DNA from: a virus
IMG/VR virus record: IMGVR_UViG_3300017757_000001
Length of the DNA stretch: 64,000 bases
Strand: one strand, 5' to 3'
Shown: piece after piece, positions 283 through 56,703 of the stretch
Layout: the number at the start of each line of letters is the position of its first letter
How positions within the stretch are numbered: position 1 is the first letter of the stretch
The notes under the pieces: generated by a model
Told to the model about the DNA's origin: nothing
The model's database searches: none
The model's input: only the letters and a program-made list of their open reading frames with translations
Position numbers and translations under genes: made by a program

Positions 283-294
283 TATTCATTATTT

Positions 295-522: not shown

Positions 523-524
523 AG

Positions 525-731
525 TTAAAATAATTTTTTAACCCAATTTTTAGCAATATCCCAATTTCTACATGCGAATACTCCAAATGCTATACCTGAG
601 TAGAATTTATATCCAAAAGATAACAATACTAATCCTGCTATAAGACCACCAATTCCTTCAATCCCATTAGCAACTATCCAATCTTTTACTATTGCATAGA
701 TTTTTTTAATAAAATTTAATACTTTATTCAT
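525..731 (-). CDS. Small membrane protein, holin/antiholin-like
   Basis: 68 aa, amphipathic N-terminus plus hydrophobic hairpin; ATATTTATA motif upstream. Confidence 0.45.
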   Translation of the reverse strand: MNKVLNFIKKIYAIVKDWIVANGIEGIGGLIAGLVLLSFGYKFYSGIAFGVFACRNWDIAKNWVKKLF

Positions 732-754
732 AATATATTATTTTTACAATTTAT

Positions 755-763
755 TATAAATAT
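755..763 (-). promoter_or_regulatory. Putative late promoter ATATTTATA
   Basis: Exact motif 24 nt upstream of ATG at 731. Confidence 0.65.
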
Positions 764-802
764 AAGAAAAAAGATACTTATGTATTTTTTATTTAGAAAA
801 AT

Positions 803-2512: not shown

Positions 2513-2522
2513 TATTTATTTT

Positions 2523-5953: not shown

Positions 5954-5982
5954 AATATACGAAATTTCTTTCGTATATCCAA
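5954..5982 (-). promoter_or_regulatory. Host-sigma-type promoter TTGG-N18-GTATATT overlapped by a 10-bp inverted repeat
   Basis: Minus strand TTGG-ATATACGAAAGAAATTTC-GTATATT; inverted repeat atatacgaaa (5955-5964) / tttcgtatat (5969-5978). Confidence 0.75.
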
Positions 5983-7953: not shown

Positions 7954-7982
7954 AATATACAAACACAAATTGGGGTAACCAA
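7954..7982 (-). promoter_or_regulatory. Host-sigma-type promoter TTGG-N18-GTATATT
   Basis: Minus strand TTGG-TTACCCCAATTTGTGTTT-GTATATTG upstream of SSB. Confidence 0.75.
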
Positions 7983-21439: not shown

Positions 21440-21448
21440 TATAAATAT
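21440..21448 (-). promoter_or_regulatory. Putative late promoter ATATTTATA
   Basis: Exact motif 30 nt upstream of the tube ATG. Confidence 0.65.
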
Positions 21449-21463: not shown

Positions 21464-24067
21464 TTATGCAGGAAATGTTGCTCCTGTTGGTAAAATATTG
21501 AAATCTAAGTAAATAAATTCAGCTGTTTTAGTAGGTTGTAAATAAATAGCACCTACTAATTGGTTTCTATCAATTACTTCTGGGCCATTGTTTGAAGAAT
21601 CCATTACAACTTTAAATGCATATAAACCTTGTCTTTGTTGTACTGATTCTAAATATGGATTTACTTGGCTTAAGAATTGATTTCTTGTTGCTGCTGTATT
21701 TTGCTCAAATACTAGATTATCAGATATTTGTGAAATATAAGATTTTAATTCTATTAATAATCTTCTTACATTTACTCTATCTAAAGCACTTGCTTTTGTT
21801 TGTAATGTTTTCTGACCAAATACTACTACTCCTTTTCCTGGGAATGTAGCTATTGGATTTACTTTACCTGTATAAAGCGAATCTCTTTGTGATTGAGTTA
21901 ATTTTCTTTCTGCTTGTAATACTGTACCTAAACCACCTCTATTAATTCCGGCAGGTGCGAACCAAGCTTCAGCTGCTTTGTCATTATACGCATATACACC
22001 CGGAATTAACGTAGAACCTGGTATCCATACTAAATGTCCTGTATCTGGTTCTGTAATTTGAACCCAAGGCCAATATGTTGAAGCATATGAATTATCTATT
22101 CCTGCTGCTTGTGCTGTAGTTAGTGTTACTGATGAACCATAACCTTGCATATCAATAATAGCAATACAATCTCCTCTTGATGAACAATTAGATATTAAAG
22201 TATTAATTGGAGTAGCATTAGTTCCAAACCCATGTATCAATCCTGGAACTGATATTAAATTATAATTATAATCATCTTTATTTGCTAATAAATTTAATGA
22301 ATCATTATAATCTGATCCTGATAAACCTTGGTTAAATTGGTTTTGAGCACCTGCCCCTGTCATGTTTTGGTAATATAAATCTCCTGCTTTAACAATATCC
22401 CCATCTGCATCTCCAAATGTTCCACTCATAGCAACTGGAATTGATGATGTAAATTCTGATTTTGCTAAACCATCATTATCAAAATAATTTGGTGTTTTAT
22501 ATAATACTTCTTTTACTCTTACATATCTTGAAGAATTTCTATAATTCCCAACATCTTGAATGTATGGTTCTGCCGTACCAGCACCCATTAATGTTTTTTT
22601 CATATCTCCAACAACTCTACCTATATAGTTTGATTGTTTTGGATCTAAAGAAACATTAGGGAAAGTTTCTAATACTGATTTATTCTTTTGGTTGTCATTA
22701 CCTTGTCTTATTATTAGTGAGAATACACCTTGAGCTGTATCTGGTGCTTGAATTTCCCATCTAAAATTATTTGCTGAACCACTTGATAAAGCTCCTTTAG
22801 CTGATTCTGGACTATTACTATTTAGTACTTTTCCTTCACCTAATGATTCTAATACAAATGCTACTTCATTATTTATTTGTCCTGCATTTAAAGTAACAGT
22901 TACATCTGTACCTAATGCAAAATCAGCTGCTTGTAATGTATAAGTTTGAGCAGTATCTAATCCAATTCCATCTGATGCAAATGATAAAACTTCACCTGCT
23001 GAATATCCTGCTCCTGGTACTGATACTGTTATACCACTTACAAAGGATTGTAACATTGTTGTTGTTATTTGAACTGTTGCATCACCTGTTCCTGCTGCTC
23101 CTGCAAATGCCCCATTCATATCTGCCTCTGTAAATGTTAATACATCACCTACTGCATATGTGCTGTTACCTCCTGCTAAAGAAGAAGCTGTACAACTAAC
23201 AACAACACCTGAAGCATCACATTCTAATATCCATGTAACACCTGTACCCGTACCTGTTGTTGAGGAAGCTGCTAATGCAGCTGATTGACCTGCTGCTGAA
23301 CTGTTATATCCTGTTGAAGTACCACCAATTGTTGATTGAACTGCTGAAGCCGATATATTACCATTATTTGTAGTTGTAATATTAGCATAAGCTTGACCAT
23401 TTACTGAAGCTGGTGTACCACCTGAAGCTGAAACATTTGTATAAACTCCTGTAGCCGAACCTGTTGCAATTGCAAGTACAGTACTAAGTCCACTTAATGA
23501 ACCACCTCCCCCAAGTGATTGTGAAGTAAATGTTAATACATCACCAATTTCAAATCCACTACCTGAATCTTGAGGTATAATAGATGCTACTGAAGAAGTA
23601 TTTGAAACTACTACATCAAATACTGGAACTGTTGCTGTTGCATCTGAATTAATTGGTGTAACTGCATATGAAGCATTTACTAAATCTGTAAAGCCAGTAT
23701 TAATAGATCCAGTCATATTAATTATATTTAATAATCCTGTTTCTAAATTGTTGTATACGTTTGATGAAGTTGCATTCGTAAATGAACCACTTACTACTCT
23801 TGTTACTAATAATGAAGTTCCACCATTAGCGAAATAGTTATTTGCTGAGATTGAAGTGAAGAAAGAATATGAATCTGAACCACTTAAGAAAGAACTACCA
23901 AAAGTTGCTAGATACTCACTGTAACTAGTAACTAAAGTTGGTACATTTACTGGTCCTAATACTGTTGGTCCTACTATAGCGCCTCCTGCTTGTACAGGTT
24001 GTGACGTTATTTGGGATTGATCATTTTCTCTTGCTAATACTCCAGGGGAAATTAATGTTTCTGCCAT
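21464..24067 (-). CDS. gp18: Tail sheath protein (T4 gp18-like) with a large Gly/Ser/Thr-rich insertion
   Basis: SPGVLAREND N-terminus; WFAPAGINRG, VNPIATFPG, GQKTLQ, DRVNVRRLL, PTKTAEFI. Confidence 0.95.
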   Translation of the reverse strand: MAETLISPGVLARENDQSQITSQPVQAGGAIVGPTVLGPVNVPTLVTSYSEYLATFGSSFLSGSDSYSFFTSISANNYFANGGTSLLVTRVVSGSFTNATSSNVYNNLETGLLNIINMTGSINTGFTDLVNASYAVTPINSDATATVPVFDVVVSNTSSVASIIPQDSGSGFEIGDVLTFTSQSLGGGGSLSGLSTVLAIATGSATGVYTNVSASGGTPASVNGQAYANITTTNNGNISASAVQSTIGGTSTGYNSSAAGQSAALAASSTTGTGTGVTWILECDASGVVVSCTASSLAGGNSTYAVGDVLTFTEADMNGAFAGAAGTGDATVQITTTMLQSFVSGITVSVPGAGYSAGEVLSFASDGIGLDTAQTYTLQAADFALGTDVTVTLNAGQINNEVAFVLESLGEGKVLNSNSPESAKGALSSGSANNFRWEIQAPDTAQGVFSLIIRQGNDNQKNKSVLETFPNVSLDPKQSNYIGRVVGDMKKTLMGAGTAEPYIQDVGNYRNSSRYVRVKEVLYKTPNYFDNDGLAKSEFTSSIPVAMSGTFGDADGDIVKAGDLYYQNMTGAGAQNQFNQGLSGSDYNDSLNLLANKDDYNYNLISVPGLIHGFGTNATPINTLISNCSSRGDCIAIIDMQGYGSSVTLTTAQAAGIDNSYASTYWPWVQITEPDTGHLVWIPGSTLIPGVYAYNDKAAEAWFAPAGINRGGLGTVLQAERKLTQSQRDSLYTGKVNPIATFPGKGVVVFGQKTLQTKASALDRVNVRRLLIELKSYISQISDNLVFEQNTAATRNQFLSQVNPYLESVQQRQGLYAFKVVMDSSNNGPEVIDRNQLVGAIYLQPTKTAEFIYLDFNILPTGATFPA

Positions 24068-24111: not shown

Positions 24112-24366
24112 CTACTTGTTGGGTAAAAATTCTCCGGTTTCTAGAGAAATGCTTCCTTCCCCATATTTTTTATTTAAATCATTTGCTAAAGTATATTCTT
24201 TTTGTTGTAACTTATTTAAACTAATTTTCATTTGTTCTTTTTTAAGTTCATAATCCATTATTTGAACTTCTAACTGTCCTACTATATTAGTTAATTCTTG
24301 GAATTCTACTTTTAGCTCTTTTAAAGATTTTATTTCTTCTTCTGTTAATTTCATTTTTTCTGTCAT
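24112..24366 (-). CDS. Small coiled-coil protein, possibly a fibre chaperone (true start may be 24354)
   Basis: Heptad-like helix ending KYGEGSISLETGEF. Confidence 0.65.
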   Translation of the reverse strand: MTEKMKLTEEEIKSLKELKVEFQELTNIVGQLEVQIMDYELKKEQMKISLNKLQQKEYTLANDLNKKYGEGSISLETGEFLPNK

Positions 24367-24368
24367 GG

Positions 24369-24377
24369 TATAAATAT
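24369..24377 (-). promoter_or_regulatory. Putative late promoter ATATTTATA
   Basis: Exact motif in the short gap after the heptosyltransferase-like gene. Confidence 0.6.
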
Positions 24378-24388: not shown

Positions 24389-25582
24389 TTAAAAATTAAA
24401 AATTTTATTAATACTTTCTTTTACTTTTGATGGTGTTATTTCTTTAGTACATTCAAACATTTTATCCGTATTTTTATGTTCAGGACACCACTCCCAATCA
24501 CCTGGATCTAATTTCTCTCTATTAAAACATCCACTACACGTACCATTATCAGGAGTAAATATTCTCTCACAATCTTCAAATTCGCTATAAGGTTCACTAA
24601 ATCCTGAAATTAGTATAGTTGGGGTGTTAAGCGACCATGATAGCCAACTTAATCCACTTCCTAATCCAATAAATCCTTCTGAATTCATTAAATCATTTGC
24701 TCTATCCTCTAAAGAATAATTACCTGATTTGTCTATAACTCCTGTTAGAGTTCCTCCTAACTTAGAATCATGCCACTCATCACCTAAGGGTTCTGCTGTT
24801 ATTAATAATACTTTATAACCTTTTTCATTTAAATAATCAATTATATTTTGCCACCCACCAGGATGATTCCAATATTTAGCATGAGCTGATGCATGGGGTG
24901 CTATACACACATATTTTTCTTTAAATTGAGATTGACTTTTTTTAAATGCTAGTTTAGGTTTTGTTTCTATATAATCTAATCCTAAAATATCAGATGAAGT
25001 TTTTCCTAAAGGTATAGTTCTAAAATCTTTTGGATTTTTTGAATAATCTACTTTTCCAGAGCTATCATAAAACCAACCTATTGAATATTGTGCATAAATA
25101 TTTTCTACACTTGATCCAGGTGATATAAATTCTAATTCTGGGTATTCTGATTTAAACCAATCATTATGGAATGTAGATACTATAATTTTACAATTATGTT
25201 TTTTTCTAAATTCATCAACAAAAGGAAACCATGCTAATGTATCACCAATTGCTTTAGAATCTAAATGTATATAAACTCTTTTATTTTCAATATTATATTG
25301 ATGATTATAGATAATATTATTAGTATTATTATCTGTTACTACAATATTATAATTAACATAATATGCTTTAGAACATCTAGTCCACATATTATTTTTTATA
25401 TTAGTATCATATATAATTTTATCCCCTTCTAAAAATTTTACATTAAATGATCCTTCTTTTCTACCTTTAATTTCAAAAAATGCTCCTCTTATAAAATTAC
25501 AATTAAATATATATTTTTCCTCTAGAGGATTTTTCCTTAAATTTATTAAATTATTATATTCTTTTATTAAAACTTCTTTCAT
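24389..25582 (-). CDS. TibC/Aah-like (BAHT family) protein O-heptosyltransferase-type glycosyltransferase
   Basis: N-terminal beta domain (FNVKF...NMWTRCSKAYY), SKAIGDTLAWFP, KYVCIA...AKYWNHPGGW, FIGLGSGLSWLSW, ISGFSEPYSEF, four-Cys motif CSGCFN...WCPEH...FECTKEI. Confidence 0.8.
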   Translation of the reverse strand: MKEVLIKEYNNLINLRKNPLEEKYIFNCNFIRGAFFEIKGRKEGSFNVKFLEGDKIIYDTNIKNNMWTRCSKAYYVNYNIVVTDNNTNNIIYNHQYNIENKRVYIHLDSKAIGDTLAWFPFVDEFRKKHNCKIIVSTFHNDWFKSEYPELEFISPGSSVENIYAQYSIGWFYDSSGKVDYSKNPKDFRTIPLGKTSSDILGLDYIETKPKLAFKKSQSQFKEKYVCIAPHASAHAKYWNHPGGWQNIIDYLNEKGYKVLLITAEPLGDEWHDSKLGGTLTGVIDKSGNYSLEDRANDLMNSEGFIGLGSGLSWLSWSLNTPTILISGFSEPYSEFEDCERIFTPDNGTCSGCFNREKLDPGDWEWCPEHKNTDKMFECTKEITPSKVKESINKIFNF

Positions 25583-26529
25583 ATTAATTCTTTATATAAA
25601 TTAGCTAATTCAATACTTCTATTATACCAACTTAATTCATGTGATGTTGTTAATGATTTTTTTGAATATTCTTTATAATTATCCATTATATCTTTATAAC
25701 CTCTATACATTTCAAATACATTTCGAGGTGCTCTCCAAGCTCCATGAAAATCTGTTTCCATTTCCCAATCAGCTATTATAGGCATTCCACAAGCAGCTGC
25801 TTCTAACATTGTTAAATTGGGATGTCCTGCTTCTAACATTGTTGGGTTTAAGAATATTTTATGTGTTTGAAATAATTTTAATGCTTCTTCTTGGGTTGGG
25901 TTAAAACTAAGTGTTAATTTAGGATAATGCAAAGTAGATAAATTTGAGTTAAAAAAGTGTTGATTATTACTAGGTCCTGCAACTGTAATATATTCACCAG
26001 TCATATTTGCTAATGCTATTCCAAATTCAAATCCTTTTCTATCATAAGATTTATCCCCAGCTAAACCATTATTAGCTAACATTAAAAAACATTTTTTATC
26101 TTCAAATTTTTCGGAAAATGAAGGAGTATAAAAATCTGTATTAACCCCATGTGAAAAATAAATACATTTTGGATTTCCAAAATACCCATTTAAATATTTA
26201 GCAGGCATTAATGATATTTTCGAATTATTAATAGCCTTTAAAGTTTCTTTATATAGGTGTGAATCTTTACCATAATGGTATGAATGATGATCATGCATTT
26301 GATAAATGTATTCTATTCCTTTTTCAGCAAGTAAATTTGCTAAATTAGTTACATGGCAGTGTATTATGTCATAATCATCTGGGATTATTTCATTTACATA
26401 TTTAACATCTACAATGTGTCCTAATTTTTCTAAATTTATTTTATATTCCCAAACTATTTTTTCAATAGCCCCCCAATCTTTTGGTGGAACCTCAATTCCA
26501 CAACCTGGATGTACTTGACATATTCTCAT
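25579..26529 (-). CDS. Glycosyltransferase, GT4 (GT-B fold)
   Basis: VPPKDWGAIEK, DIIHCH, HGVNTDFY, RKGF, EAGHPNLTMLEAAACGMPII. Confidence 0.88.
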   Translation of the reverse strand: MRICQVHPGCGIEVPPKDWGAIEKIVWEYKINLEKLGHIVDVKYVNEIIPDDYDIIHCHVTNLANLLAEKGIEYIYQMHDHHSYHYGKDSHLYKETLKAINNSKISLMPAKYLNGYFGNPKCIYFSHGVNTDFYTPSFSEKFEDKKCFLMLANNGLAGDKSYDRKGFEFGIALANMTGEYITVAGPSNNQHFFNSNLSTLHYPKLTLSFNPTQEEALKLFQTHKIFLNPTMLEAGHPNLTMLEAAACGMPIIADWEMETDFHGAWRAPRNVFEMYRGYKDIMDNYKEYSKKSLTTSHELSWYNRSIELANLYKELI

Positions 26530-29288
26530 TATTTTAAATATTGTTCTTTATTTCCTTTCCAGGTAAAACTTCCATTAGTACTAATTTCATTATCCATATA
26601 GTCTTGATTTACTTTAAATTTATAATTTTTTAATAAGGTTTTATTATTTCCATCTAAAACTTCTATAGATATTATAAAATTATCACCTTTATTATATTTA
26701 ATTAAATCCCAAAATTTAAACTTACCATTTACATATAAAGTTCTATTAATAAAATTTCCTTCATTATTTTTATTTACTATATAATTTATAATTTTTTTGT
26801 CATTAAGATTATTTATTTCTATAAAAGGAGAAAAATACCCATTCATATTAGTACAAGGTAATATAGTATAATATTCACATCTAGAAAAATCTTTATGAGT
26901 AAAATTTTCCTTTATGTTAAATTTAAAAGTATCTTGATTTTCTCTATATATATTTTTTTCATTTTTAAACATATGATAAAATAGATTTTCTAAACCATTA
27001 GATTCTGAATTATGTATATTCATTAAATTATTATATTCTTCAGCATTATTTATTTTTGGTAAAAATGAATCTAAATAATCTATATTAGCTCCTAAAAAGA
27101 ATGTTTCTAAAGTATTACCTTCTAAAGCCTTATATTTACCTAAATATGCTTTATGTGTTAATAATTTATTATTAATATCATCTATAAATGAATTATTTTT
27201 TAATATATAATCAAAATTTAAAAAGAAAACATTTTTTATATTTAAACTTTTAGCTAATTTTACTCCATTGTAGTAATTAGTATAAACAGAAGGACCATGG
27301 TAAATATTATTATTATGTTTAGTTAGATTTATATCATAATCATATATGTCAATACTACCATAAGATCTAGCATAATAAGTATGTTTTGTTAAAATATTAT
27401 CGGAATCATATATAGAATAATCAACTAATTCCTGAAGTGATTTAGGTATAGGAGCATGGCTTGTAAGTATTAAAATTCTATTAAGTTTTTTTAAAGATTT
27501 AATACATTCTTTTGTAGTATTAATTACATTATCAGATGTAGGATAAGTAGAAATAATAAAAACTTCTGAATTTGTATCAAACTTAGTGGGTATTCCACCT
27601 TCATTAGGGATCATACCTATAGGCATTTGATCGCTATCTAATCTTAGTACTGGTATTCCTTTATATTCTTCTGGGGCTAATTTTTCAAAATTTTCGTAAT
27701 TTTTTTCCATATCTTCAAAATCAAGATAATGGACATTATCAAATTTATCAAAATAATTTAAATAAACTCCTAAATTATAAATCATTAAATTCATATTCCA
27801 TGACATAGCTTCACGAATAACTAAAGGCATTGTTTCTTTATCGTTTGCACTTCCTCTAGAAGTAAACAAAAATAAATCCATTGAAGAATAAAAATTATCT
27901 ACATCTTTTCTTTCATCCCACCAGGTTAAATTATCTGGTTTATTTTTCATTAAAGGTTCCCAATAATGTTTAAAATTTCCTGCTTGATTACCAACACAAT
28001 GAAATTGATGCCAAGGATATTTTCTAGCAAATTCAAAAAATTCAGCTTGATTTTTTCTGGGTGTAAATAAACCTACATGAAGGATATGTTTTTTAGAGGG
28101 ATCTAATCCTAATTTATTTAATGCTTTTGTTCTATCTGGTCTTTCTTTATATTCAATAGGATATTCTACTAATACTTTAGGTATATCTATGTCATTATAT
28201 TGTTTTATCTGCCAATCTGAAACAAACATAAATTTATCTGGGAAAAATAATTTATTATCTGTATTCATAGAAGAATCATGAGATGTTTCTACTATATTAT
28301 AATTTCTATCTGGAGAATATATTTTTTTAGCTATATCATAATCCATAAAATATTCTGGTATTTCTTCTAAATGGATTATGTTTGGTTGTATATCATTAAT
28401 TATATTTAATATATCTTCTTTATCTTCATATAAAGTATAAAATTTATCACCATCAATTAAACTTAATATTTTATTTTTTTGTACTACTAATTTATTACCC
28501 CCATGATCTGAGTATTCTACTACATAAACTTCATAGTTATCTTTTATAAGTTCTATTTTTTTAACAAGATATTGTGGAAGCCCTCCAGTAGATAAATGAG
28601 GAGCTATATAAAGTAATTTTTGAGGTCGATTATCGATATAAAGTATAAGTTGTTGTTTATTTATTAACTGTTCTTCTAAATTATCTTCTAAAATCTGGGT
28701 TATATCATCCCCTGTAACTGTGTCAACTTTAAATTTAAAATTTTCTTTTTTTAATAATTCATACACTTTTCTAAAAGAATTTGTCATTTCTTTAGTGTTT
28801 AGATGAAATTCTCCTACAATGTAACCAACATTATTTTTTAAATATTTAATATGTTCTTCAGTAAAAATATGATACTCTCCTCCTTCACAGTCTGTTTTTA
28901 AATAATCAATATATTCTAAATTATTTTCTTTTAAAATAGTATTAAAAGTAATAGATTTTACATTTTCTTTATGACAACTCCATTCTAATTCAAATTCATG
29001 GTTATCATTATCCCCAATAGCATTTTTATAAAGTTTTAAAGGTAATCCTTTTGCATTTTTATTTAAGGTCTTATGATAAGCTGATATAGGTTCAACAGCT
29101 ATAACTTTTGATGGGTTATTATCTTTAATTGAATATAAAAAAGGACCTATACTTGCCCCAATATCTAATACTACATCACCTTCTTGAACAGTATGATGTT
29201 TTTCATATTGAGAACGATTAACATATTCTTCAGTTAACCAATATTTAAAGTGGGGGTCTCCATCTAAGGCCTTACCAAATTCGAACAT
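26529..29288 (-). CDS. Multidomain fusion: FkbM-family methyltransferase + GT4 + probable third glycosyltransferase-like domain
   Basis: VVLDIGASIG...AVEP...LKTDCEGGE (FkbM); PHLSTGGLPQY...VGLFTPRKNQ...ETMPLVIREAMS (GT4); VFIISTYP...ILTSH...FLNFDY (GT-A-like, weaker). Confidence 0.8.
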   Translation of the reverse strand: MFEFGKALDGDPHFKYWLTEEYVNRSQYEKHHTVQEGDVVLDIGASIGPFLYSIKDNNPSKVIAVEPISAYHKTLNKNAKGLPLKLYKNAIGDNDNHEFELEWSCHKENVKSITFNTILKENNLEYIDYLKTDCEGGEYHIFTEEHIKYLKNNVGYIVGEFHLNTKEMTNSFRKVYELLKKENFKFKVDTVTGDDITQILEDNLEEQLINKQQLILYIDNRPQKLLYIAPHLSTGGLPQYLVKKIELIKDNYEVYVVEYSDHGGNKLVVQKNKILSLIDGDKFYTLYEDKEDILNIINDIQPNIIHLEEIPEYFMDYDIAKKIYSPDRNYNIVETSHDSSMNTDNKLFFPDKFMFVSDWQIKQYNDIDIPKVLVEYPIEYKERPDRTKALNKLGLDPSKKHILHVGLFTPRKNQAEFFEFARKYPWHQFHCVGNQAGNFKHYWEPLMKNKPDNLTWWDERKDVDNFYSSMDLFLFTSRGSANDKETMPLVIREAMSWNMNLMIYNLGVYLNYFDKFDNVHYLDFEDMEKNYENFEKLAPEEYKGIPVLRLDSDQMPIGMIPNEGGIPTKFDTNSEVFIISTYPTSDNVINTTKECIKSLKKLNRILILTSHAPIPKSLQELVDYSIYDSDNILTKHTYYARSYGSIDIYDYDINLTKHNNNIYHGPSVYTNYYNGVKLAKSLNIKNVFFLNFDYILKNNSFIDDINNKLLTHKAYLGKYKALEGNTLETFFLGANIDYLDSFLPKINNAEEYNNLMNIHNSESNGLENLFYHMFKNEKNIYRENQDTFKFNIKENFTHKDFSRCEYYTILPCTNMNGYFSPFIEINNLNDKKIINYIVNKNNEGNFINRTLYVNGKFKFWDLIKYNKGDNFIISIEVLDGNNKTLLKNYKFKVNQDYMDNEISTNGSFTWKGNKEQYLK

Positions 29289-29317
29289 AACATTATAATT
29301 TTAAAACTATTTGACAC

Positions 29318-29346
29318 AATATAACAAAACTTAAGTATTAATCCAA
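29318..29346 (-). promoter_or_regulatory. Host-sigma-type promoter TTTGG-N18-TTATATTG driving the glycosyltransferase cluster
   Basis: Minus strand TTGG-ATTAATACTTAAGTTTTG-TTATATTG. Confidence 0.7.
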
Positions 29347-29352
29347 ACTAAA

Positions 29353-32300
29353 TTAACCTTCACTTGGAGTTTTTTCATCATCTTTTGGTTCTGCATATCC
29401 TGGAACTGCATATTTTGCGTAATTTGGAGAAGTTAGACCATGTTTATTACCAAACACTAACCAAATATCAGGTTCACCACAAACGAACCAATATCCTGTT
29501 TCTATTTTAGTTTTATTAGTATAAACTCCATCAATCATCTGTCTACCTTTAGGTGTTACAGTTTTCATTGAACCTGTTTCATTTTGTACTAATAATTGAT
29601 TTGTATAAAATGAACCTGAATTAAATAATGTAGGTGAACTACCACCATTTTGAGTAATATATCTATGAGATTCTGGTCTATTACTAGCACTATCCCAATA
29701 CATCATTTGACCTCTATCTGTTTGATTTATTGCATAATCTAATCCAATTGTTATATCTCCTGATAAAGTACCACCACCTGTTATAGGTCCAGTAACATTT
29801 ACACTTACATAAGTACCAGAAGTACCTACATTACCTGATATTCCTGAAGTACCATTAGCTCCTGATGAACCTGAAGTTCCTGAGTTTCCAGAAGAACCTG
29901 ATGTACCCGTAGCTCCTGATGAACCTGATGTACCGGCTCCTGAACCACTTGTTCCTGAAGAACCATCTCCTCCTGAAGTTGCTCCTGCTCCTGAAGTTCC
30001 TGCTATACCATCTGTACCACTTGTTCCTGAAGTACCATCTGCTCCAGAAGTTGCTGCATCTCCAGTTGAACCTGCTATACCATCTGTACCTGAAGTACCA
30101 CTTGTACCATCTGCTCCTGACGTTGCTGCATCCCCAGTTGAACCTGCTATACCATCTGTACCACTTGTTCCTGAAGTACCATCTGCTCCAGATGAACCTA
30201 CATCCCCTGAAGTACCTGATGTACCTGAAGAACCACTTCCCCCTGATGAGCCAATATTTCCTGATGTACCACTTCCCCCAGTTGAACCTGAAGTACCAGT
30301 TGTACCACTTATTCCATTAGTATTAGCTGTACCTGATGTACCTGCCGTTCCCGAAGAACCTGATGTTCCAGAAGAACCTGATGTTGGTGAATAACATATA
30401 GTATATTTAACACCTACAGTTAATGTAAATGAAGAACTTATTAATGGTAAATAAGTAACTGTAAAATTAGAACCTCCACCTAAAATATTAGTAACTTCAT
30501 AATAACTAATATTTCCAGTTGCGGTCATATCAATTAATTTTATAATATCACCTACACTTACATTAGCAGCCCATGGGAATATGTTTGGAGTAGCTGTTGA
30601 TAAAATAAATTGATTAATATTTTGTGAACCAAGATGACTTACATAAAATGCACCAGCTGGGACAGGTGCAGTTTGAGAAGCTTGAGCTATAGTACAACCA
30701 CCACTTACACCTGAAGTACCTGAACTTGACCCTGCACCTGATGTACTTCCAGTTCCTGAAGTACCTGATGTACCATCAGTACCTGATGTATGTGAATTTC
30801 CTGAAGTACCTGCTGTACCTGTAGTACAACTATCACCTGAAGTAGCACAAGTACCACTACTACCACTTTCTCCTGAAGTACCACTTGTTCCTGTAGTACA
30901 ACTTGTTCCATTAGTACCATTTGCACCTGTTGTACCTGATGTTCCTGATGAACCTGAAGTGTTTGATAAAGCACTTTCTCCTGCTGTACCATCTGTTCCT
31001 GAATTTCCTGAAGTACCTGCTGTACCTGAAGTTTCCCCATCTCCTGAAGTACCTGCTGTACCTGAAGTTCCACTCACTCCTGATTGGCCTGAAACTCCTG
31101 AAGAACCTAATTCACCTGATGTACCTGCTGTACCTGCTGTACCTGCTGTACCTGATGTGCCTGAATTTCCACTACTACCACTTCCTCCTGAAGTACCACT
31201 ATTACCTGTTGATCCTATAGCACCTGAAGTACCTGATGTACCCGAAGAACCACTTCCTCCTGATGAACCACTATTTCCTGAAGATCCAATGTCACCTGTA
31301 GAACCTGAAGTTCCAGTAGTACCACTTACTCCATTTGTACCTGATACCCCACTAGTTCCTGATGTACCTGATGTACCAGTAGAAGCACTTGAACCTGAAG
31401 TACCTGTAAATCCAGATGTTCCACTATCTCCTGTTGTACCTGAAGTACCTGTAGTTCCTGTTGTACCATTTGTTCCTGAATTTCCTGAAGTACCTGCTGT
31501 ACCTGTAGTTCCACTTACTCCTGATTGACCTGAAACTCCTGAAGAACCTAATTCACCTGATGTACCTGCTGTACCTGCTGTTCCTGAAGAACCATTAGAT
31601 CCACTTCCTCCTGATGAACCAATTGCACCTGTAGTACCACTTACTCCACCTGTACCTGATGTACCTGATGATCCACTATTACCTGAAGAAGCATCATCTC
31701 CACTACTACCAGCTGTTCCACTAGAACCCGATGAACCTGATGTTGCACTAAGTCCTGAAGATCCTACAGTTCCTGATAATCCACTACTTCCTGAAGTACC
31801 TGAGGTACCTGATGTCATTGATAAGGCACTTTGTCCAAATGTTCCTTCTGTACCTGATAATCCTGAAGTTCCTGAAGTTCCTGAAGATCCTGCACCACCT
31901 GATGTACCTGAAGAATGCCCTGAACCTGAAGTACCTGCTGTACCTGAAGATGAACTTGCACCTGAAGATCCATGGTCTCCTGTTGAACCTGAAGTACCTG
32001 TAGAACCTGCTGTTCCTGAAGAACCACTACCTCCTGAAGATCCAATGTTACCTGTAGAACCTGATTCTCCCGAAGTACCATCTGTTCCTGAAGAACTTGA
32101 TAATCCTGAAGTACCTTCTGTACTTGAAGCTCCTGAAGTACCTGAAGTTCCTGTTGTACCTGATAAAGAACTAAACCCACTTGTTCCTGCTGTACTTGAA
32201 GCTCCTGAAGTACCATCTGTACCAGAAGTACTACTGTTACCTGAAGTACCTGCTGTACCCGTAGAACCACTTACTCCTGATTGGCCTGAAACTCCTGAAG

Positions 32301-35300
32301 AGCCTAAAACTCCAGAAGAACCTGCTGTACCATCTGATCCTGAAGTACCTGAAGAGCCACTTCCTCCTGATGAACCACTATTACCTGTTGATCCACTTCC
32401 CCCTGAAGTTCCAGTAGTACCATCAGAACCTGATTCTCCTGTTGTACCTGAAGTTCCTGTAGAACCTGATTCTCCTGTTGTACCTGATGTACCATCTGAA
32501 CCTGAATTACCTGTTGTACCTGCTGTTCCTGAAGAACCTGTTGTTCCTGAAGTTCCAGTAGTACCATCTGAACCTGAATTACCTGTTGTACCTGAAGTTC
32601 CTGTAGAACCTGCTGTTCCTGAAGTACCTGATGTATCTGAATTTCCACTAACAGCTTCTACACATATTAGTTCTTTAACATTTCCTATTAAAGTAAATGA
32701 TGATCCTGATGTATTAGATACAGTAAATACTGTAGTTGATCCACCTATAGATACTGCTGATGCTAAATAAGTATTTATAACACCTGTTGCTAGGTGTGTT
32801 ATTGATAATACACTTCCAATCCCAGCACTAGTAACCCATGGGAATGCAGCATTAGGTAATTCAATACTTGTAATATTATTTGAATTAGTAGAATTTGCGG
32901 TAAATTGAGGGGGTGAACCTACTGGGGATGAACTAACAAAATCAGCTATAACACACCCACCACTTAATCCTGAAGAACCTGCTGTACCAGTAGTACCTGC
33001 TGTACCACTTGATCCACTTTCTCCTGTTGTACCATCTGTTCCTGAAGAACCTGTTGTACCTGATGTACCAGTTGTACCACTAGAACCACTTTCTCCAGTT
33101 GTACCACTAGTTCCAGTAGAACCTGTTGTACCTGAAGTTCCAGTTGTACCACTTGATCCACTTTCTCCAGTTGTACCACTAGTTCCACTTTCTCCTGAAG
33201 TACCAGTTGTTCCTGTAGAACCTGATTCACCTGCTGTACCTGAAGTACCATCTGAGCCACTTTCTCCTGTTGTACCATCTGTTCCTGAAGAACCTGAAGT
33301 TCCAGTTGAACCTGAAGTACCATCTGAACCTGATTCACCTGAAGTACCTATTGTTCCTGAAGAACCTGATGTTCCTGTTGTACCTGAAGTACCATTTGTA
33401 CCTGATTGTCCTCCTGTACCTGAAGTTCCTGAAGTACCTGAAGTACCACTTACTCCTGATTGACCTGAAACTCCTGAAGAACCTAGAATTCCTGATGTAC
33501 CTGCTGTACCATCTGATCCTGAAGAACCTGAAGTTCCTGATTCACCTGATTCACCTTTTGTACCATCATTTCCACTAGTACCTGATGTACCAGATGTACC
33601 TGTAGAATTTGATTGACCTGTTGTACCTGCTGTTCCTGTAGAACCCGAAGATCCTGAAGTTCCAGTTGAACCACTTGATCCACTTTCTCCTGTTGTACCA
33701 TCTGTTCCAGATGAACCTGAAGTTCCTGTAGTACCTGAAGTACCATCTGAACCTGATTCTCCTGTTGTACCACTAGTTCCAGTAGAACCTGTTGTACCTG
33801 AAGTTCCAGTTGTACCACTTGATCCACTTTCTCCAGTTGTACCATCTGTTCCTGAAGAACCTGAAGTTCCAGTAGTACCACTTGATCCACTTTCTCCTGA
33901 AGTACCATTAGATCCAGTTGTTCCATGAGTTCCAGTTGTTCCTGTAGTACCTGCTGTACCTGAAGTACCATTTGTACCTGAAGTACCATCTGAGCCACTA
34001 TCCCCTGAAGTACCATCTGTTCCTGTAGTACCTGCTGTTCCTGAAGTACCACTTACCCCAGATTGACCTGAAACTCCTGAAGAACCTAAAACTCCAGAAG
34101 AACCTGCTGTACCATCTGTTCCTGAAGTACCTGAAGTTGCACTTTGTCCTGATGTACCTGAAGAATGTCCTGAACCTGAAGTACCTGCTGTTCCTGAAGA
34201 TGAACTTGCACCTGAAGATCCATGGTCTCCTGTTGTACCTGAAGTTCCTGTAGAACCTGCTGTACCATCTGAACCTGAATCACCTGAAGAACCATCATTT
34301 CCTGTTGATCCTGAAGTACCTGCTGTTCCTGCTGTACCATCTGAGCCTGATTCACCTGCTGTTCCTGCTGTACCATCAGAACCTGATTCTCCATTTGTTC
34401 CTGAAGAACCATCAGAACCACTTTCTCCTGCTGTACCATCTGTTCCTGTAGAACCTGAAGTTCCTGTAGTACCTGAAGTACCATCTGAGCCACTTTCCCC
34501 TGAAGAACCATCTGTTCCTGTAGAACCTGCTGTTCCTGAAGTTCCAGAAGTACCATCGGAACCTGATTCTCCGCTTGTTCCTGAAGTACCTGATGTTCCT
34601 CCTGTACCATTAGTACCTGAAGTGCCATCAGATCCTGAATTTCCGCTTGTTCCTGAAGTACCTGCTGTTCCTCCTGTACCATTAGTACCTGAAGTACCAT
34701 TAGATCCTGATTCACCTGAAGTACCTGAAGTTCCTTCTGTACCACTTGTTCCTGAAGAACCATCAGAACCTGATTTACCTGAAGTGTTGGATGAACCTGC
34801 TGTACCTCCTGTTCCTGAAGTACCATCTGAACCACTTACTCCAGTTGTTCCTGATGTACCATCAGAACCTGATTCTCCGGATGTGCCATCTGTTCCTGTA
34901 GAACCTGCTGTACCTGATGAACCCGAAGAACCATCAGAACCACTATCTCCTGAAGAACCATCTGTTCCTGTAGAACCTGCTGTTCCTGAAGTTCCAGAAG
35001 TACCATTTGAGCCACTATCCCCTGAAGTACCATCTGTTCCTGTAGAACCTGATGTACCTGATGTACCTGAAGAACCATCAGAACCTGATTCACCTGATGT
35101 ACCTGAAGAACCATCTGTACCTGAAGTACCTGAAGTTCCAGAAGTACCATCTGTTCCAGATATACCTGATGTACCTGAAGAACCATCTGAGCCTGAAGTA
35201 CCTGAAGTACCTGAAGTACCATCTGTTCCTGAAGAACCTGATGTACCTGATGTACCTGAAGTACCATCAGAACCTGATTCTCCACTTGTTCCTGAAGTAC

Positions 35301-36087
35301 CTGAAGTACCACTTACTCCATTTGTTCCATTTGTACCATCTGAACCTGATTCACCTGAAGTACCTGCTGTACCATCTGAACCTGATTCACCTGAAGTACC
35401 TGAAGTACCACTTGTATTATTTGTACCCGATGTACCTGCTGTACCACTTGCTCCTGAAGAACCTATTAATCCCGAAGTACCTGAAGTACCAGATTCTCCA
35501 GCTGTACCATTTGTGCCTGAAAAACCACTTGTACCTGATGTTACATTTACATATCCTAATATTCCTGTTACTGCATCATAAGTAACAATTGTAGGCATAT
35601 CTTGTGTTGGAAGAGTATTTATTTTAAAATTTTCAAAAACTGATCCAGGTTTTTCAGTTAATTGAAATGCTGCACTACCTGTTACTAAGAAACTACCTGT
35701 AATTTCTGCTGGGTGGTTAGGTAATGCTATTGTTCCTGATCCTGAGTATGGAAATGAAACACCTTGTGAATCGGTTATTTCTATGTTTATACCATTAGCA
35801 CCATTAGGAGTAATACTATTTATAGCATTACCAGTTAAATATACTTCTGTAGTATTAGACGTTATTACACTACCATTATACAAAAATTGTATACCACTAC
35901 CATAACCTGGCATAGTAGATAAGTCAATACTATGAGAATAATAAGATTGACTAGCAAAGTAAAAATTTATTTTACTACCTTCTAAAGAACTTGAAGCATA
36001 TAAAGATTGCCAGTTAGTATCAACTTCATACCAAGTTAATTCTGATCCTTTATTTATCCTTAATAATATGTCTGGTACAAATGGCAT
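29353..36087 (-). CDS. Giant Gly-X-X (Ser/Thr-rich) repeat protein, probable virion fibre
   Basis: 2244 aa; N-terminal [18 protein letters not shown] anchor-like motif; ~1700 aa of SGT/TGT/SGS triplets; two ~100-aa globular inserts; C-terminal [19 protein letters not shown] then head domain; follows the neck genes. Confidence 0.8.
29810..35540 (-). repeat. Degenerate 9-bp (Gly-X-X) tandem repeat array within the fibre gene, with higher-order blocks
   Basis: Plus-strand units such as gtacctgaa/gttcctgaa; [14 protein letters not shown] x5, [28 protein letters not shown] x2, [15 protein letters not shown] x3. Confidence 0.95.
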
Positions 36088-37029
36088 TTATTCTTTATTA
36101 TGTAAATCTGGGTTAATTTCTTTTCTATTTGGATCTTTAGCAAATACTTTTTCTATATCTTCGATTGCATACTCTTGTATTAAAACTTGTGTAGCATTAC
36201 TTATTTTTTTAACTGCTGATAGTTGTTTTTGTGTTACATCAGGAACTACATAACCATGTAATTTCATTGAAAATGTGCTTTTAACTATTCTTTCACCTGA
36301 TGGTGGTAGTATTGTATCAGTTGCTATAGAATTAATATTAGCTCTAAATTTAAATCTTTGAGGGTCACCCCAATAAGAATCAGATGCATAATTTATAGCT
36401 TCTACTAAACCATTCATTTGTTCTACATAATAGGTAGATATAATAAAATCATAATTTAAAGTCATATAATCTGGTATAACTACCGCATAATAATCTTTTT
36501 TAGGTATTCTATTTGTTAGTATATTAAAATTATCATATTGATTTTTTTTACTATATTTTTTTTCAAATAATTGTACGTTATTAGGAAAGTTAGCATCTAA
36601 TTTATTAGATAAATTTCTAACTTTTTCCATACTTGTTCTTTTAAAAGTAATAAGGGGCATCATTATTTTTCCCTTTTTATCTTGTAAATATCCTTTTTTC
36701 TGTACTTGAACCCATCTTTCAGGTGAACCATAATATAAAGGTACATTTAATTGTGCTCCGTTTTGCATTACTGTGGGTTTAATAACCTCATTTATATAAT
36801 ACATTACTGCTTCATCAATATCTTTTAATCCTAAACTAAAAGGTTTTGTATTGTCTCCCCTAAATGTTTTTTGATTTCCTCTATTTTTATTAGGAGGATA
36901 TGAAGTATTATTGGGATTACCAGTAGAAGAAAAACCAGGAGACCCTGCAGGAGGGTTGTATGGAGTTTGTTGAGAAACACTAATTTGTCTTTGTGTTTTT
37001 GGTATGGGTGTTTTTCCTTGTTTTGCCAT
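36088..37029 (-). CDS. Tail completion / terminator protein (T4 gp15-like)
   Basis: LKDIDEAV, VPLYYGSPERW, MPLITFKR, PDYMTLNY...YVEQMNGLVE; follows gp13/gp14-like genes. Confidence 0.6.
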   Translation of the reverse strand: MAKQGKTPIPKTQRQISVSQQTPYNPPAGSPGFSSTGNPNNTSYPPNKNRGNQKTFRGDNTKPFSLGLKDIDEAVMYYINEVIKPTVMQNGAQLNVPLYYGSPERWVQVQKKGYLQDKKGKIMMPLITFKRTSMEKVRNLSNKLDANFPNNVQLFEKKYSKKNQYDNFNILTNRIPKKDYYAVVIPDYMTLNYDFIISTYYVEQMNGLVEAINYASDSYWGDPQRFKFRANINSIATDTILPPSGERIVKSTFSMKLHGYVVPDVTQKQLSAVKKISNATQVLIQEYAIEDIEKVFAKDPNRKEINPDLHNKE

Positions 37030-37631
37030 TATATAAATCTTTCTCTTGTTATACCTACTTTATCAGCTGGGACATAATGTGTTTTAACTATAATTGAAGT
37101 ATTCCACCCATATTCACCTAATCCTGGGTTATATGGATTTGGTTCATTAGGGTAAGATGGATTTTTTCCAACAAAATATTGGTTAGCATCAATATCATCT
37201 ACTTCATAATATCCTTCTTGGTATAAGATAATATCACCTACTTCAGGAACTAAATCAGCTCCATAAGAACTAGTAACATTATTATTTACATATCCACTTC
37301 TATAAGTACCTTCAGTATAACTCATACTTATATTAAAATCTTCAGCTTTTCCTAATAAATCATCTCTTAAAAATTTAAAAGTAGTACTCCAAGCAAAATC
37401 CGTACCAAATTCTGTTTCTGGTTGAGACTGTTCATCTCTATCAACTACACAATTTAATAAAACAGGACCCATATAGTATTTTTCCTCAGCCGACTCTCCA
37501 TATAAATTTACTTTAGTTTCTTCTAACTTAAACTTATAAAAAGAACACTGTTGGGTGATAATATCACCCATCAATTCTCTATTTAAGTTTCTAAAGAGAC
37601 TAATGTCTCTTGCTGATCCAAACATTGCCAT
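37029..37631 (-). CDS. Neck / head-closure protein (T4 gp14-like)
   Basis: NLYGES, PEVGDIILY...YYEVD; position between gp13-like and gp15-like genes. Confidence 0.6.
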   Translation of the reverse strand: MAMFGSARDISLFRNLNRELMGDIITQQCSFYKFKLEETKVNLYGESAEEKYYMGPVLLNCVVDRDEQSQPETEFGTDFAWSTTFKFLRDDLLGKAEDFNISMSYTEGTYRSGYVNNNVTSSYGADLVPEVGDIILYQEGYYEVDDIDANQYFVGKNPSYPNEPNPYNPGLGEYGWNTSIIVKTHYVPADKVGITRERFI

Positions 37632-37632
37632 A

Positions 37633-38820
37633 TTACCCTATATAAATTACTCGTGGAACCTTATCTAATTCTTTTTGAACAAAATCAGATTCCATTGTTC
37701 TTCTTTCTAATAACTTTTCTCTAGATGTTTCATCAAAAAATGCTCTTAGTTTTTCTAATAATGCTTCTTTTTCAGCTCGTGCAGCTGCTAATAAATCAGC
37801 TTGATTTAATGTAACTTCAGCACCTGGTATAGGTACTTGTGTATATTTACCCCTAACATATCCCAACATTTCTTTAGCAATTGCTAATGTCATTTCAAAT
37901 ATCCAAGCTCTACCTACTGAATTAATATCTGAATATTTTGGGTTTTTATAAGGTACTCCACTAACTGTTTTAATTTTTAAATATCCATCTTCAAATGATG
38001 CTGAATTTCTTTCTGAATTTAACATAAATTCAAACCATATACTACCTGCTGAACCTGAAGGATGTGCTCCTGGTACACCATTAACAGGTACATTTCTTGG
38101 GATTGGAAATACTCTTAATACATTGTTATGCATTTCAAACGAAAAATTAGATCTTCTAATAGTATCACTTAATTCTATAGCTTGAATTACTTGTGTATCA
38201 TAATTAAGGGGCATCATCATAAAATTAACAGCAGGAGAATAATTACCCCAACCAAAAGAATCCATCATATTCATCATTCCTGTACCTGATCCTACGTATG
38301 GGTCGAAAAATTTAACAATAGCTGGAGTATTCTCATAAAATACTCTCATTATTTCTATATCATTATCTTTATACCCATTTTCAATTGCCCAAGCATTTAA
38401 ATCATAATCTTGAACACTACCTGTTAAATGAATTCTTCCTTTATGCCATGGTACATTTCCTCCAGTTCCTGCTTCAGCTCCATATTGTTCTGATAATGCT
38501 ATTATACGTCCTAAATTAGGTGTTACAATAGTTTCATTTATATCAATTGAATCAGGTGTACCTTCTAATGATAAATAATTATCTCTTATTTTATAAGCAA
38601 ATAACTCATTACCATATAAAGTAACTGCTTCTTCAAAAGCAGCATAAAAATTTTTAGCTTGTAATTCAATTTCAACAATAGGATATCCCATTCTTCTAGA
38701 ACAGAAAACACAGACTTTAGGTGCATCTTGCTCAAATGCAGTATCATAATCATAAAATCCAAATGGTGTATCACCAGGATGAAATGAAGCCGAACCAGGC
38801 CATATAGGTATATTTGCCAT
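37633..38820 (-). CDS. gp13: Neck / head-tail adaptor (T4 gp13-like)
   Basis: RMGYPIVEIEL, WIFEMTLAIAKEMLGYVRGKY...IPGAEVTLN, ends IYIG. Confidence 0.8.
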   Translation of the reverse strand: MANIPIWPGSASFHPGDTPFGFYDYDTAFEQDAPKVCVFCSRRMGYPIVEIELQAKNFYAAFEEAVTLYGNELFAYKIRDNYLSLEGTPDSIDINETIVTPNLGRIIALSEQYGAEAGTGGNVPWHKGRIHLTGSVQDYDLNAWAIENGYKDNDIEIMRVFYENTPAIVKFFDPYVGSGTGMMNMMDSFGWGNYSPAVNFMMMPLNYDTQVIQAIELSDTIRRSNFSFEMHNNVLRVFPIPRNVPVNGVPGAHPSGSAGSIWFEFMLNSERNSASFEDGYLKIKTVSGVPYKNPKYSDINSVGRAWIFEMTLAIAKEMLGYVRGKYTQVPIPGAEVTLNQADLLAAARAEKEALLEKLRAFFDETSREKLLERRTMESDFVQKELDKVPRVIYIG

Positions 38821-39898: not shown

Positions 39899-39907
39899 TA
39901 TAAATAT
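39899..39907 (-). promoter_or_regulatory. Putative late promoter ATATTTATA
   Basis: Exact motif 11 nt upstream of ATG at 39888. Confidence 0.65.
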
Positions 39908-42251: not shown

Positions 42252-42260
42252 TATAAATAT
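42252..42260 (-). promoter_or_regulatory. Putative late promoter ATATTTATA
   Basis: Exact motif downstream of the capsid terminator, 30 nt upstream of the amidinotransferase ATG. Confidence 0.65.
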
Positions 42261-54502: not shown

Positions 54503-54531
54503 AATATACAAAATTTATTCTATAATTCCAA
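54503..54531 (-). promoter_or_regulatory. Host-sigma-type promoter TTTGG-N18-GTATATT
   Basis: Minus strand TTGG-AATTATAGAATAAATTTT-GTATATT. Confidence 0.75.
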
Positions 54532-54537: not shown

Positions 54538-54945
54538 TTAAAAAGGTAAATCCTCAGGATCTAATTGTGATGATCCTTTTCCTACCCTATAACTGTCACT
54601 ATCAAAATGTTGTGTTGATACTTCAAATATAGTAGCTCCTTCTTCAAGAGCCAACATTTGGTGAGGTTGTCCTGGCATTAAATGAATGCAATCCCCTTCT
54701 CTAACTATTCGGAAATTTATTTCTGCTGTTTCAGTATCAATCCAACCATATTGAAATTCACCTTTAGAAATATACCATGCTTCATCTTTTAGTAGATGGT
54801 AATGCATAGAGAATTTTTTATCCTTTTTAAATACTAATAACTTACCACAGTATTTTTCGTTATTAATAATCCATAATTCATGCCCCCAAGCTTTTTCATG
54901 AATTTCTCCTTTATAGGGCATTGCTTGTAATGTATGTTCTCTCAT
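54538..54945 (-). CDS. Cupin, sugar-phosphate isomerase-like (type II mannose-6-P isomerase C-domain)
   Basis: KAWGHE, YCGKLL, SMHYHLLKDEAW, PGQPH, EVST. Confidence 0.75.
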   Translation of the reverse strand: MREHTLQAMPYKGEIHEKAWGHELWIINNEKYCGKLLVFKKDKKFSMHYHLLKDEAWYISKGEFQYGWIDTETAEINFRIVREGDCIHLMPGQPHQMLALEEGATIFEVSTQHFDSDSYRVGKGSSQLDPEDLPF

Positions 54946-56674: not shown

Positions 56675-56703
56675 AATATACGAAAACAAAATGTGACCTC
56701 CAA
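56675..56703 (-). promoter_or_regulatory. Host-sigma-type promoter TTTGG-N18-GTATATTG
   Basis: Minus strand TTGG-AGGTCACATTTTGTTTTC-GTATATTG. Confidence 0.75.

Follow-up and report, generated by a model that had tools for sequence, protein, structure and literature searches.

We examined a 64,000-nucleotide (nt) stretch of viral DNA, IMG/VR virus record IMGVR_UViG_3300017757_000001 (hereafter the window), in which positions 24389-36087 probably encode a phage-borne protein O-glycosylation module whose acceptor would be the fiber encoded directly upstream of the enzymes. The closest described systems are the TibC-TibA and Aah-AIDA-I pairs of Escherichia coli (TIGR04414; PDB 4RAP/4RB4; PMC4358343). 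All characterized enzymes of this family, termed BAHTs, glycosylate serine residues of an adjacently encoded repeat protein, and the structure of TibC assigns the catalytic base to Asp110, sugar binding to Thr226, Lys230, Arg286 and Trp305, an iron finger to Cys339, Cys342, Cys358 and Cys370, and heptose stereoselectivity to Pro300 (PMC4358343). Similar to these pairs, the phage enzyme shows homology along its entire length, the N-terminal barrel region included, its gene adjoins that of a long serine-rich repeat protein, and it probably acts many times per chain in the cytoplasm. Unlike them, the phage system has as its neighboring protein a Gly-X-Y collagen-like fiber rather than a beta-helical autotransporter passenger, carries glycine rather than proline or serine at the stereoselectivity position, is virus-borne, and includes three further transferase modules and a methyltransferase. 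Because the enzyme would work beside these additional modules, an oligosaccharide appears to be the expected product rather than single heptoses. Membership of an autotransporter system was considered and rejected, since the neighboring collagen-like protein has no autotransporter features and the defining acceptor, a beta-helical autotransporter, is missing.

By analogy, the nearest functional counterpart appears to be BclA3-SgtA of Clostridioides difficile, which is closer than the serine-rich-repeat adhesin loci; SgtA attaches O-linked sugars to threonine and serine of the collagen-like BclA3 repeats, and the two proteins are encoded side by side (PMC7157674). Together with BclA of Bacillus anthracis, this system shares with the phage locus a collagen-like repeat protein accompanied by an adjacent transferase gene, and these bacterial proteins form Gly-X-Thr surface filaments whose glycan is further extended, and methylated in anthrose (PMC7157674). 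However, SgtA is a GT-A/tetratricopeptide-repeat transferase of O-linked N-acetylglucosamine that is unrelated to TibC, and the BclA3 repeats are proline-rich Gly-Pro-Thr triplets displayed on a bacterial spore and not on a virion.

The serine-rich-repeat adhesin loci of Gram-positive cocci (GspB, Fap1, PsrP; GtfA/B, GlyE) likewise pair a giant serine-rich repeat protein with several adjacent transferases, which there glycosylate it in steps, and the predicted GT-A domain of the phage resembles the GT8 enzyme GlyE in fold. The phage repeats are collagen-like triplets, in contrast to the SASX-type dipeptide repeats of those adhesins, and neither a GtfA/GtfB pair nor accessory SecA2/Y2 export was found among the Pfam and NCBIfam matches of the cassette. 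Classification as a serine-rich-repeat adhesin system was rejected because both of these hallmarks are lacking, and the parallel to such loci that was drawn in an initial annotation of this DNA holds as an analogy of layout.

Among phages, Freeman et al. (2023, in Cell Host Microbe 31:1216) are said to have found that mycobacteriophage-encoded glycosyltransferases modify the phages' own virion proteins. The mycobacteriophage case reportedly resembles the present one in having phage-encoded glycosyltransferases in the structural gene region; it differs in that the reported acceptors are capsid and tail-tube proteins in siphophages of Actinobacteria and in that it is not known to involve a BAHT enzyme or a collagen-like acceptor. 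To our knowledge, phage-encoded virion glycosylation has so far been shown only in mycobacteriophages, and the BAHT enzymes described to date all come from enteric pathogens, where they serve autotransporter adhesins. A full-text literature search returned no paper tying BAHT enzymes to phages or to collagen-like proteins.

Enzymes and fiber of the candidate module

The minus strand carries every gene of the window. The features of the module are given below in the order of transcription, with their lengths in amino acids (aa).

29353-36087, minus strand: giant Ser/Thr-rich collagen-like fiber, 2244 aa, proposed glycan acceptor (Pfam Collagen)
35536..36087, minus strand: fiber N-terminal non-repeat domain, residues 1-184
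32629..32952, minus strand: first globular insert interrupting the triplet repeats (residues 1046-1153), Cys-flanked
30379..30702, minus strand: second globular insert, about residues 1796-1903
29356..29808, minus strand: fiber C-terminal non-repeat domain, residues 2094-2244 (151 residues), candidate distal tip or trimerization domain
26529-29288, minus strand: FkbM-GT4-GT-A fusion enzyme, 919 aa
28623..29288, minus strand: FkbM-type methyltransferase domain, residues 1-222 of the 919-aa protein (PF05050, 39.3 bits, cut-off 22.7; TIGR01444, 55.1 bits, cut-off 37.7)
27624..28622, minus strand: GT4 (GT-B) domain, residues 223-555 of the 919-aa protein (PF00534, 36.1 bits over residues 386-518, cut-off 26.4)
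26532..27623, minus strand: putative GT-A-fold transferase domain and C-terminal beta-sandwich, residues 556-919 of the 919-aa protein (AlphaFold model, Foldseek)
25579-26529, minus strand: second GT4-like glycosyltransferase, 316 aa, 1-nt overlap with the 919-aa gene
24389-25582, minus strand: TibC/Aah-family (BAHT) protein O-glycosyltransferase, 397 aa, proposed initiating enzyme, 4-nt overlap with the 316-aa gene

By its sequence, the 397-aa protein clearly belongs to the BAHT family. It scored 312.3 bits on the TIGR04414 model hepto_Aah_TibC (equivalog cut-off 200), compared to 22-29 bits on the lipopolysaccharide (LPS) heptosyltransferase models RfaC, RfaQ and heptosyltransferase I, and its residues 42-395 aligned to residues 37-387 of TibC (PDB 4RAP; E 5.7e-59). 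The active site contains D114 at the position of the TibC catalytic base, together with S232 (T226 in TibC), K236, R294 and W313; three of the four sugar-binding residues are those of TibC, and the fourth is a conservative change from threonine to serine. A four-cysteine 1Fe-0S iron finger was predicted at C349, C352, C366 and C378 (CSGC...WCPEH...FEC), and sequence features in keeping with a BAHT-type ring dodecamer are seen, namely this finger and an alignment that continues through the thumb region. Across 139 diverse relatives, the positions of Asp110, Lys230, Trp305 and the four cysteines are essentially invariant.

Both the FkbM and the first GT4 domain of the 919-aa fusion pass the cut-offs of their models, and the GT4 domain carries an E-x7-E motif (ETMPLVIRE) and is 65-73% identical in relatives. 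The C-terminal 364 aa went unrecognized in profile searches, and a protein-atlas search returned only unnamed viral clusters. An AlphaFold model of this part (pLDDT 86, from an alignment of 25 homologs) matched GfsA, glycogenin/LgtC (GT8), GlyE and TarS in Foldseek (E 3e-6 to 1e-4, probability 1.00), and its N136-x-D138 motif is invariant in the 25 homologs. From this modeled fold, the third domain is read as a putative GT-A-fold nucleotide-sugar transferase. The 316-aa protein scored just under the Pfam GT4 cut-off (24.5 bits versus 25); it was called GT4-type because a domain that does pass Pfam GT4, the N-terminal half of the GT4-TibC fusion of phage LR756501, aligns with it at 38% identity (E 3e-70). 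Relatives of the 316-aa protein are fused to TibC domains in at least 16 cluster representatives. The FkbM domain was found at its present position in only 4 of 37 close homologs and recurs elsewhere as a fusion partner. Other homologs show FkbM as a separate gene, a GT25-like extension, or an epimerase within variable inserts. Methyl-capping by FkbM would be an accessory feature.

The fiber comprises 611 glycines, 540 serines, 429 threonines and 30 prolines among its 2244 residues, with Ser/Thr amounting to 969 (43%) and with 1.3% proline, 0.2% arginine and 0.8% lysine. It contains 499 Gly-X-Y triplets within runs of at least five, where X is mainly threonine and Y mainly serine, and it scored 591.7 bits on Pfam Collagen (PF01391; E 1.8e-182). 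The repeat register is mostly kept, because most breaks between triplet runs are a single triplet without glycine. A collagen triple helix usually needs proline or charged pairs for stability. The fiber has the long Gly-X-Y repeats of collagen-like triple-helix proteins and lacks their proline and charged-pair content. With the collagen rise of 0.286 nm per residue, the rod would be approximately 0.45 micrometers long if its 1645 repeat residues form a collagen helix.

The N-terminal domain is presumed to be the end attached to the virion. The two globular inserts, of about 105 residues each, are paralogous (32% identity over 90 aa, E 2e-8), and the C-terminal domain is homologous to the tips of relatives' fibers, strongly diverged and mosaic. 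BLAST searches with the N-terminal, C-terminal and insert domains among the fetched loci described below found no relatives, and tblastn of the repeat region against isolate phages gave no match, the low-complexity masking having stripped the query.

These results agree closely with the initial annotation, which had described a 2244-aa protein with roughly a thousand Ser/Thr residues in Gly-X-X repeats, lying between neck and sheath genes and followed by an overlapping operon of an FkbM-GT4-GT fusion, a GT4 enzyme and a TibC/Aah-like transferase. The coordinates, the gene calls and their order stand, the residue estimate is close to the count, and each of the three enzyme identities was recovered, the last GT of the fusion as a predicted GT-A fold. 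Its proposal that the phage initiates, extends and methyl-caps glycans on its own fiber is likewise supported by the enzyme identities and by the co-occurrence described below, with the qualification that methyl-capping belongs only to a minority of relatives.

In the mechanism that we propose, the fiber would be produced late from the neck operon as a trimeric, proline-free collagen-like rod of mainly Gly-Thr-Ser triplets. In the cytoplasm of the infected cell, the TibC-like enzyme would attach the first sugar to the Ser/Thr hydroxyls of the repeats from a donor of the ADP-heptose type. The two GT4 modules and the GT-A module would then lengthen the glycan, and the FkbM domain would O-methylate it, with the transferase operon being transcribed from its own two-box promoter. 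The resulting dense glycan coat would stabilize and solubilize the triple helix without proline or hydroxyproline, and the virion would gain a glycan-covered appendage. Glycosylated threonine stabilizes collagen in the cuticle of a deep-sea worm. Stabilizing and solubilizing a triple helix that lacks proline is a likely role for the glycan, and shielding or adhesion would be equally possible; host mimicry is a further role that the initial annotation suggested.

Linkage of fiber and transferase genes across genomes

We assessed whether fiber and enzymes are found together in other genomes. Relatives of the TibC-like gene number 264 IMG/VR contigs for this clade and 790 protein clusters at an E of 1e-30 or below. 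From the clade, 80 TibC-anchored loci were fetched, and 144 loci from four further queries brought the total to 224; the matched controls were 80 loci (1.2 Mb) anchored on another gene of the window, and a neighbor was counted when it was an open reading frame (ORF) with at least 20 Gly-X-Y triplets. Such an ORF was found in 116 of the 224 TibC-anchored viral loci and in none of the 80 control loci (0/80). When the TibC sequences were clustered at 55% identity by single linkage, 14 of the 20 clusters had a collagen-like neighbor. The co-occurrence of BAHT-like and SGT-repeat genes, which the initial annotation had named as a check, was thus clearly found.

The neighboring ORF is found in three arrangements, either on the cassette's own strand, 5' or 3' of it, or convergent with it, often at a distance of 10-60 bp, and the largest reach 3195 aa, 955 triplets and 58% Ser/Thr. 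Within the window's own clade, all fetched loci that extend far enough upstream share one order, namely the collagen-like ORF, GT4-GT-A, GT4, TibC, a variable insert in some, an 84-aa ORF and the sheath gene. The partner domains are also frequently joined: in 80 of the 150 nearest cluster representatives at 50% identity (from a library of 1.8 billion proteins), TibC is fused to a GT4a, GT4b, GT-A or FkbM domain in many different orders. A viral scan with one GT4b-TibC fusion (P0134) recovered one locus only. It was also noted that three metagenomic proteins (P0124, P0173 and P0257) carry two or three tandem TibC-like domains in one polypeptide.

The module is present or absent as a unit. Loci of the same clade were collected by anchoring on the tail tube gene (73-99% tube identity), and some of these are without TibC. 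In all nine TibC-less relatives with at least 7 kb of sequence upstream of the sheath gene (9/9; tube 73-85% identical), the slot between the neck and sheath genes contains neither the cassette nor a collagen-like ORF. The slot of Flavobacterium phage vB_FspM_immuto (hereafter immuto), an isolate, has neither TibC nor a collagen-like fiber and holds non-collagen fibers. In a further TibC-less relative (L471:2-2410), the same slot carries a collagen-like fiber that is proline-rich (19%) and poor in Ser/Thr (10%). A Ser/Thr-rich, proline-free composition may go with the enzymes, and this single case fits that idea. The L471 fiber has classical GPIGPQGAQ repeats and ends in a coiled-coil-like tail.

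The association extends to distant phages and to bacteria. Microcystis phage Mel-JY01 (L001, PP395634.1) encodes a single 1226-aa protein consisting of a GT4 domain, a GT-A-like part and TibC, and just upstream we found a long plus-strand ORF, also collagen-like, that had escaped annotation. It has 202 triplets, a Ser/Thr content of 40% and a length of 1016 aa or more, and its reading frame stays open through both ends of the linear record (2-3052 and, at the record end, 187738-190001). In the genome as deposited, this stretch is given to hypothetical proteins on the opposite strand. In the 735-kb phage LR756501, the GT4-TibC fusion adjoins a collagen-repeat ORF. The closest bacterial homologs (40-46% identity), in chromosomes of Methylobacter, Polaromonas, Arenicellales and others, adjoin small Gly-X-Y ORFs that are poor in proline and rich in Ser/Thr, and more distant homologs in Paraburkholderia adjoin 1700-aa ORFs that look like autotransporters. 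A record labeled as a giant-virus metagenome-assembled genome (L166, IMGVR GVMAG-S-404869-56) contains a TibC-like domain within a 1103-aa protein, with a small Gly-X-Y ORF 1.5 kb away. Because the pairing of fiber and enzyme recurs across many phages and some bacteria, a sugar coating of the fiber appears very probable.

Donor sugar and competing explanations

The gene content of related loci makes a nucleotide-activated, heptose-like donor plausible. In one of them (L142), the operon continues after the TibC gene with a cupin gene and two genes that in NCBIfam match HldE best, one its adenylyltransferase half (100 bits) and the other its kinase half (122 bits). A collagen-like ORF that is 1592 aa or longer faces this operon. 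The HldE-like gene pair was found 3' of TibC in seven further loci (L135, L139, L140, L144, L146, L201 and L151). As a separate observation, the window itself contains a 135-aa cupin-like gene (54538-54945, minus strand) that is 58% identical to the L142 cupin, which lies between the GT4-TibC fusion and the HldE-like genes; cupins of the same kind also occur in L201 and L151. The window cupin may act in this sugar pathway too, perhaps catalyzing an isomerization or epimerization.

Several points weigh against a fiber-directed glycosylation module as we describe it. The system is known here from its genes, from which both the glycosylation of the fiber and its presence in the virion are deduced. 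The repeats that known BAHTs glycosylate are those of beta-helical autotransporters, and their structure differs from that of Gly-X-Y repeats. Six of the 20 TibC lineages had no collagen-like neighbor within the flanks searched, and many loci share descent, which means that the locus counts overstate independence and that the 14 of 20 lineages are the fairer figure. The donor may not be heptose, since no HldE-like heptose-pathway gene was found in the 64-kb window, a search of five viral records with TibC yielded no GmhA, the HldE-like scores lie under the equivalog cut-offs, the heptose-contacting Arg286 varies among the 139 relatives, and the position of Pro300 is occupied by glycine here. 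Finally, GT4 and GT-A enzymes in the host-recognition regions of marine phages have been read as modifiers of host LPS (PMC7029224).

This last point underlies the alternative that survives best, in which the transferase operon would remodel envelope glycans of the host (LPS core or O-chain, capsule), for superinfection block or release, and would lie near the fiber gene because both occupy a shared hypervariable host-recognition region. The synthesis of LPS and polysaccharides typically involves GT4 and GT-A families, the heptosyltransferases of LPS make up family GT9, the promoter-like motif of the operon is not of the late type, and the glycosyltransferases in host-recognition clusters of pelagimyophages have been interpreted in this way (PMC7029224). 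We nevertheless regard it as unlikely: the TibC-like enzyme fits the BAHT model far better than the LPS heptosyltransferase models and keeps the BAHT-specific iron finger, its neighbor is specifically a Ser/Thr-rich Gly-X-Y ORF rather than any fiber (the non-collagen fibers of immuto come without TibC), and the pairing survives rearrangement and occurs in bacterial chromosomes.

It is quite unlikely that the enzymes mainly glycosylate other virion proteins, such as the capsid, sheath or decoration proteins, although the cassette does sit within the structural module and transferases from mycobacteriophage structural operons glycosylate capsid and tail tube proteins, according to the passage in PMC12582341 that cites this work. 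The capsid and sheath genes persist in TibC-less relatives, whereas the collagen-like ORF comes and goes with the cassette, and in other lineages the cassette adjoins a collagen-like ORF and not capsid or sheath genes. A linkage that is historical and without function, with inactive or unrelated TibC-like genes and Ser/Thr repeats that are a low-complexity spacer, is very improbable: low-complexity repeat genes and accessory genes do both accumulate in variable regions, but the near-invariance of the catalytic and metal-binding residues in diverse relatives, the lack of Gly-X-Y ORFs in the control loci and the repeated fusion of partner domains all speak against it. Glycosylation of the upstream-encoded fiber is the reading that we retain.

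Transcription, surrounding genes and significance

Two promoter-like motifs and the genes bordering the module are listed here.

42341-44353, minus strand: major capsid protein, 670 aa
39899..39907, minus strand: late-promoter-like motif ATATTTATA at the start of the operon whose last gene is that of the fiber
37633-38820, minus strand: head-tail adaptor, 395 aa, phrog_211
36088..38820, minus strand: neck genes (313 aa, 200 aa, adaptor of 395 aa), 5' border of the slot, with homologs of all three in immuto
29318..29346, minus strand: promoter-like two-box motif TTGG-N19-TATATT, within the 64 bp that precede the transferase operon
24112..24366, minus strand: conserved helical ORF of 84 aa that separates cassette and sheath gene and marks the 3' limit of the slot; a late motif of its own lies at 24369-24377
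21464-24067, minus strand: tail sheath, 867 aa
20922-21410, minus strand: tail tube

In the direction of transcription, the major capsid gene is followed by the late operon, which consists of a 351-aa virion protein, the head-tail adaptor, the 200-aa gene, the 313-aa gene and then, without a gap, the 2244-aa fiber gene. After the 64-bp gap come the three overlapping transferase genes, the 84-aa ORF, the sheath, the tube and the baseplate hub. The fiber gene was assigned to the late operon starting at the motif at 39899-39907 because no gap separates it from the upstream neck genes.

The motif ATATTTATA occurs 15 times in the window, always on the coding strand, against 6.4 occurrences expected, and none of 100 shuffles reached 15. 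Its sites lie mostly just 5' of structural genes (e.g., 24369-24377, before the 84-aa ORF; 21440-21448; 39899-39907; 42252-42260), and we take it as the probable late promoter in phages of this group. No copy was found in the 64-bp gap before the transferase operon. The gap instead holds the two-box motif, the pattern of which was taken from aligned relatives; TTGG-N18-20-TATATT occurs eight times in the window, again all on the coding strand, versus 2.2 expected (0 of 100 shuffles), and the motif is kept before the same operon in at least 12 diverged relatives. The sequence evidence supports an own promoter-like element of the transferase operon, distinct from the late motif. This element may be read by a host sigma factor, and earlier than the fiber would be expressed. 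A generic sigma-70 scan of the window returned 71 sites versus 69 expected, which is the level of chance, and two earlier hand-built motif patterns, which were badly specified, showed no enrichment. The own promoter of the initial annotation therefore stands as a conserved and enriched motif separate from the late one, while its host-sigma character gained nothing from the generic scan. Motifs of the two-box class were also noted before a subset of genes inside the structural region (5954-5982, 7954-7982, 29318-29346, 54503-54531 and 56675-56703).

The 84-aa ORF is kept in most relatives, whether the cassette is present or absent. The space between TibC and this ORF is hypervariable among relatives, ranging from 0 to 3.7 kb (L024:2193-4454, L027:2502-3503, L073:7482-8363 and others), and was seen to contain a Peptidase_G2 intramolecular-chaperone fiber, an NAD-dependent sugar epimerase or a free-standing FkbM gene.

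The source of the window is an uncultured, aquatic T4-like myovirus with a G+C content of approximately 29%. Immuto is the nearest isolate, and Mel-JY01 is more distant. Among prokaryotic genome bins, the TibC-like gene is best matched by short contigs assigned to Flavobacteriales and Winogradskyella, which gives a weak hint of the host group. Two of these (L321 and L322) carry a phage-type fiber with a TibC cassette at 57-58% identity and are probably phage contigs. Compared with their immuto counterparts (536 and 709 aa), the window's capsid protein (670 aa) and sheath (867 aa) are each longer by an inserted segment of about 150-200 residues, and these insertions may be surface decoration domains.

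The BAHT family is thus encountered in hundreds of aquatic viral contigs, where the acceptor that these enzymes would glycosylate is of another kind, namely a collagen-like fiber free of proline. We hold it possible, as a tentative extension, that a large and abundant group of aquatic phages and some environmental bacteria keep proline-free collagen stable and soluble through dense O-glycosylation of Gly-Thr-Ser repeats, with a processive ring-shaped BAHT threading the nascent rod and with half-micrometer, glycan-coated fibers on ocean virions. If the proposed glycosylation is true, heavily glycosylated appendages would be common in marine and freshwater phages, with a bearing on adsorption, stickiness, grazing and aggregation, and the cassettes would offer a modular natural toolkit for glycosylating simple Gly-Ser/Thr repeats. 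The replacement of hydroxyproline by O-glycans in collagen stabilization would be a directly testable idea, and a cultured carrier exists in Microcystis phage Mel-JY01. For the BAHT family, the collagen-like fiber would be a second natural class of acceptor and, with it, a new chemical route to collagen stability.

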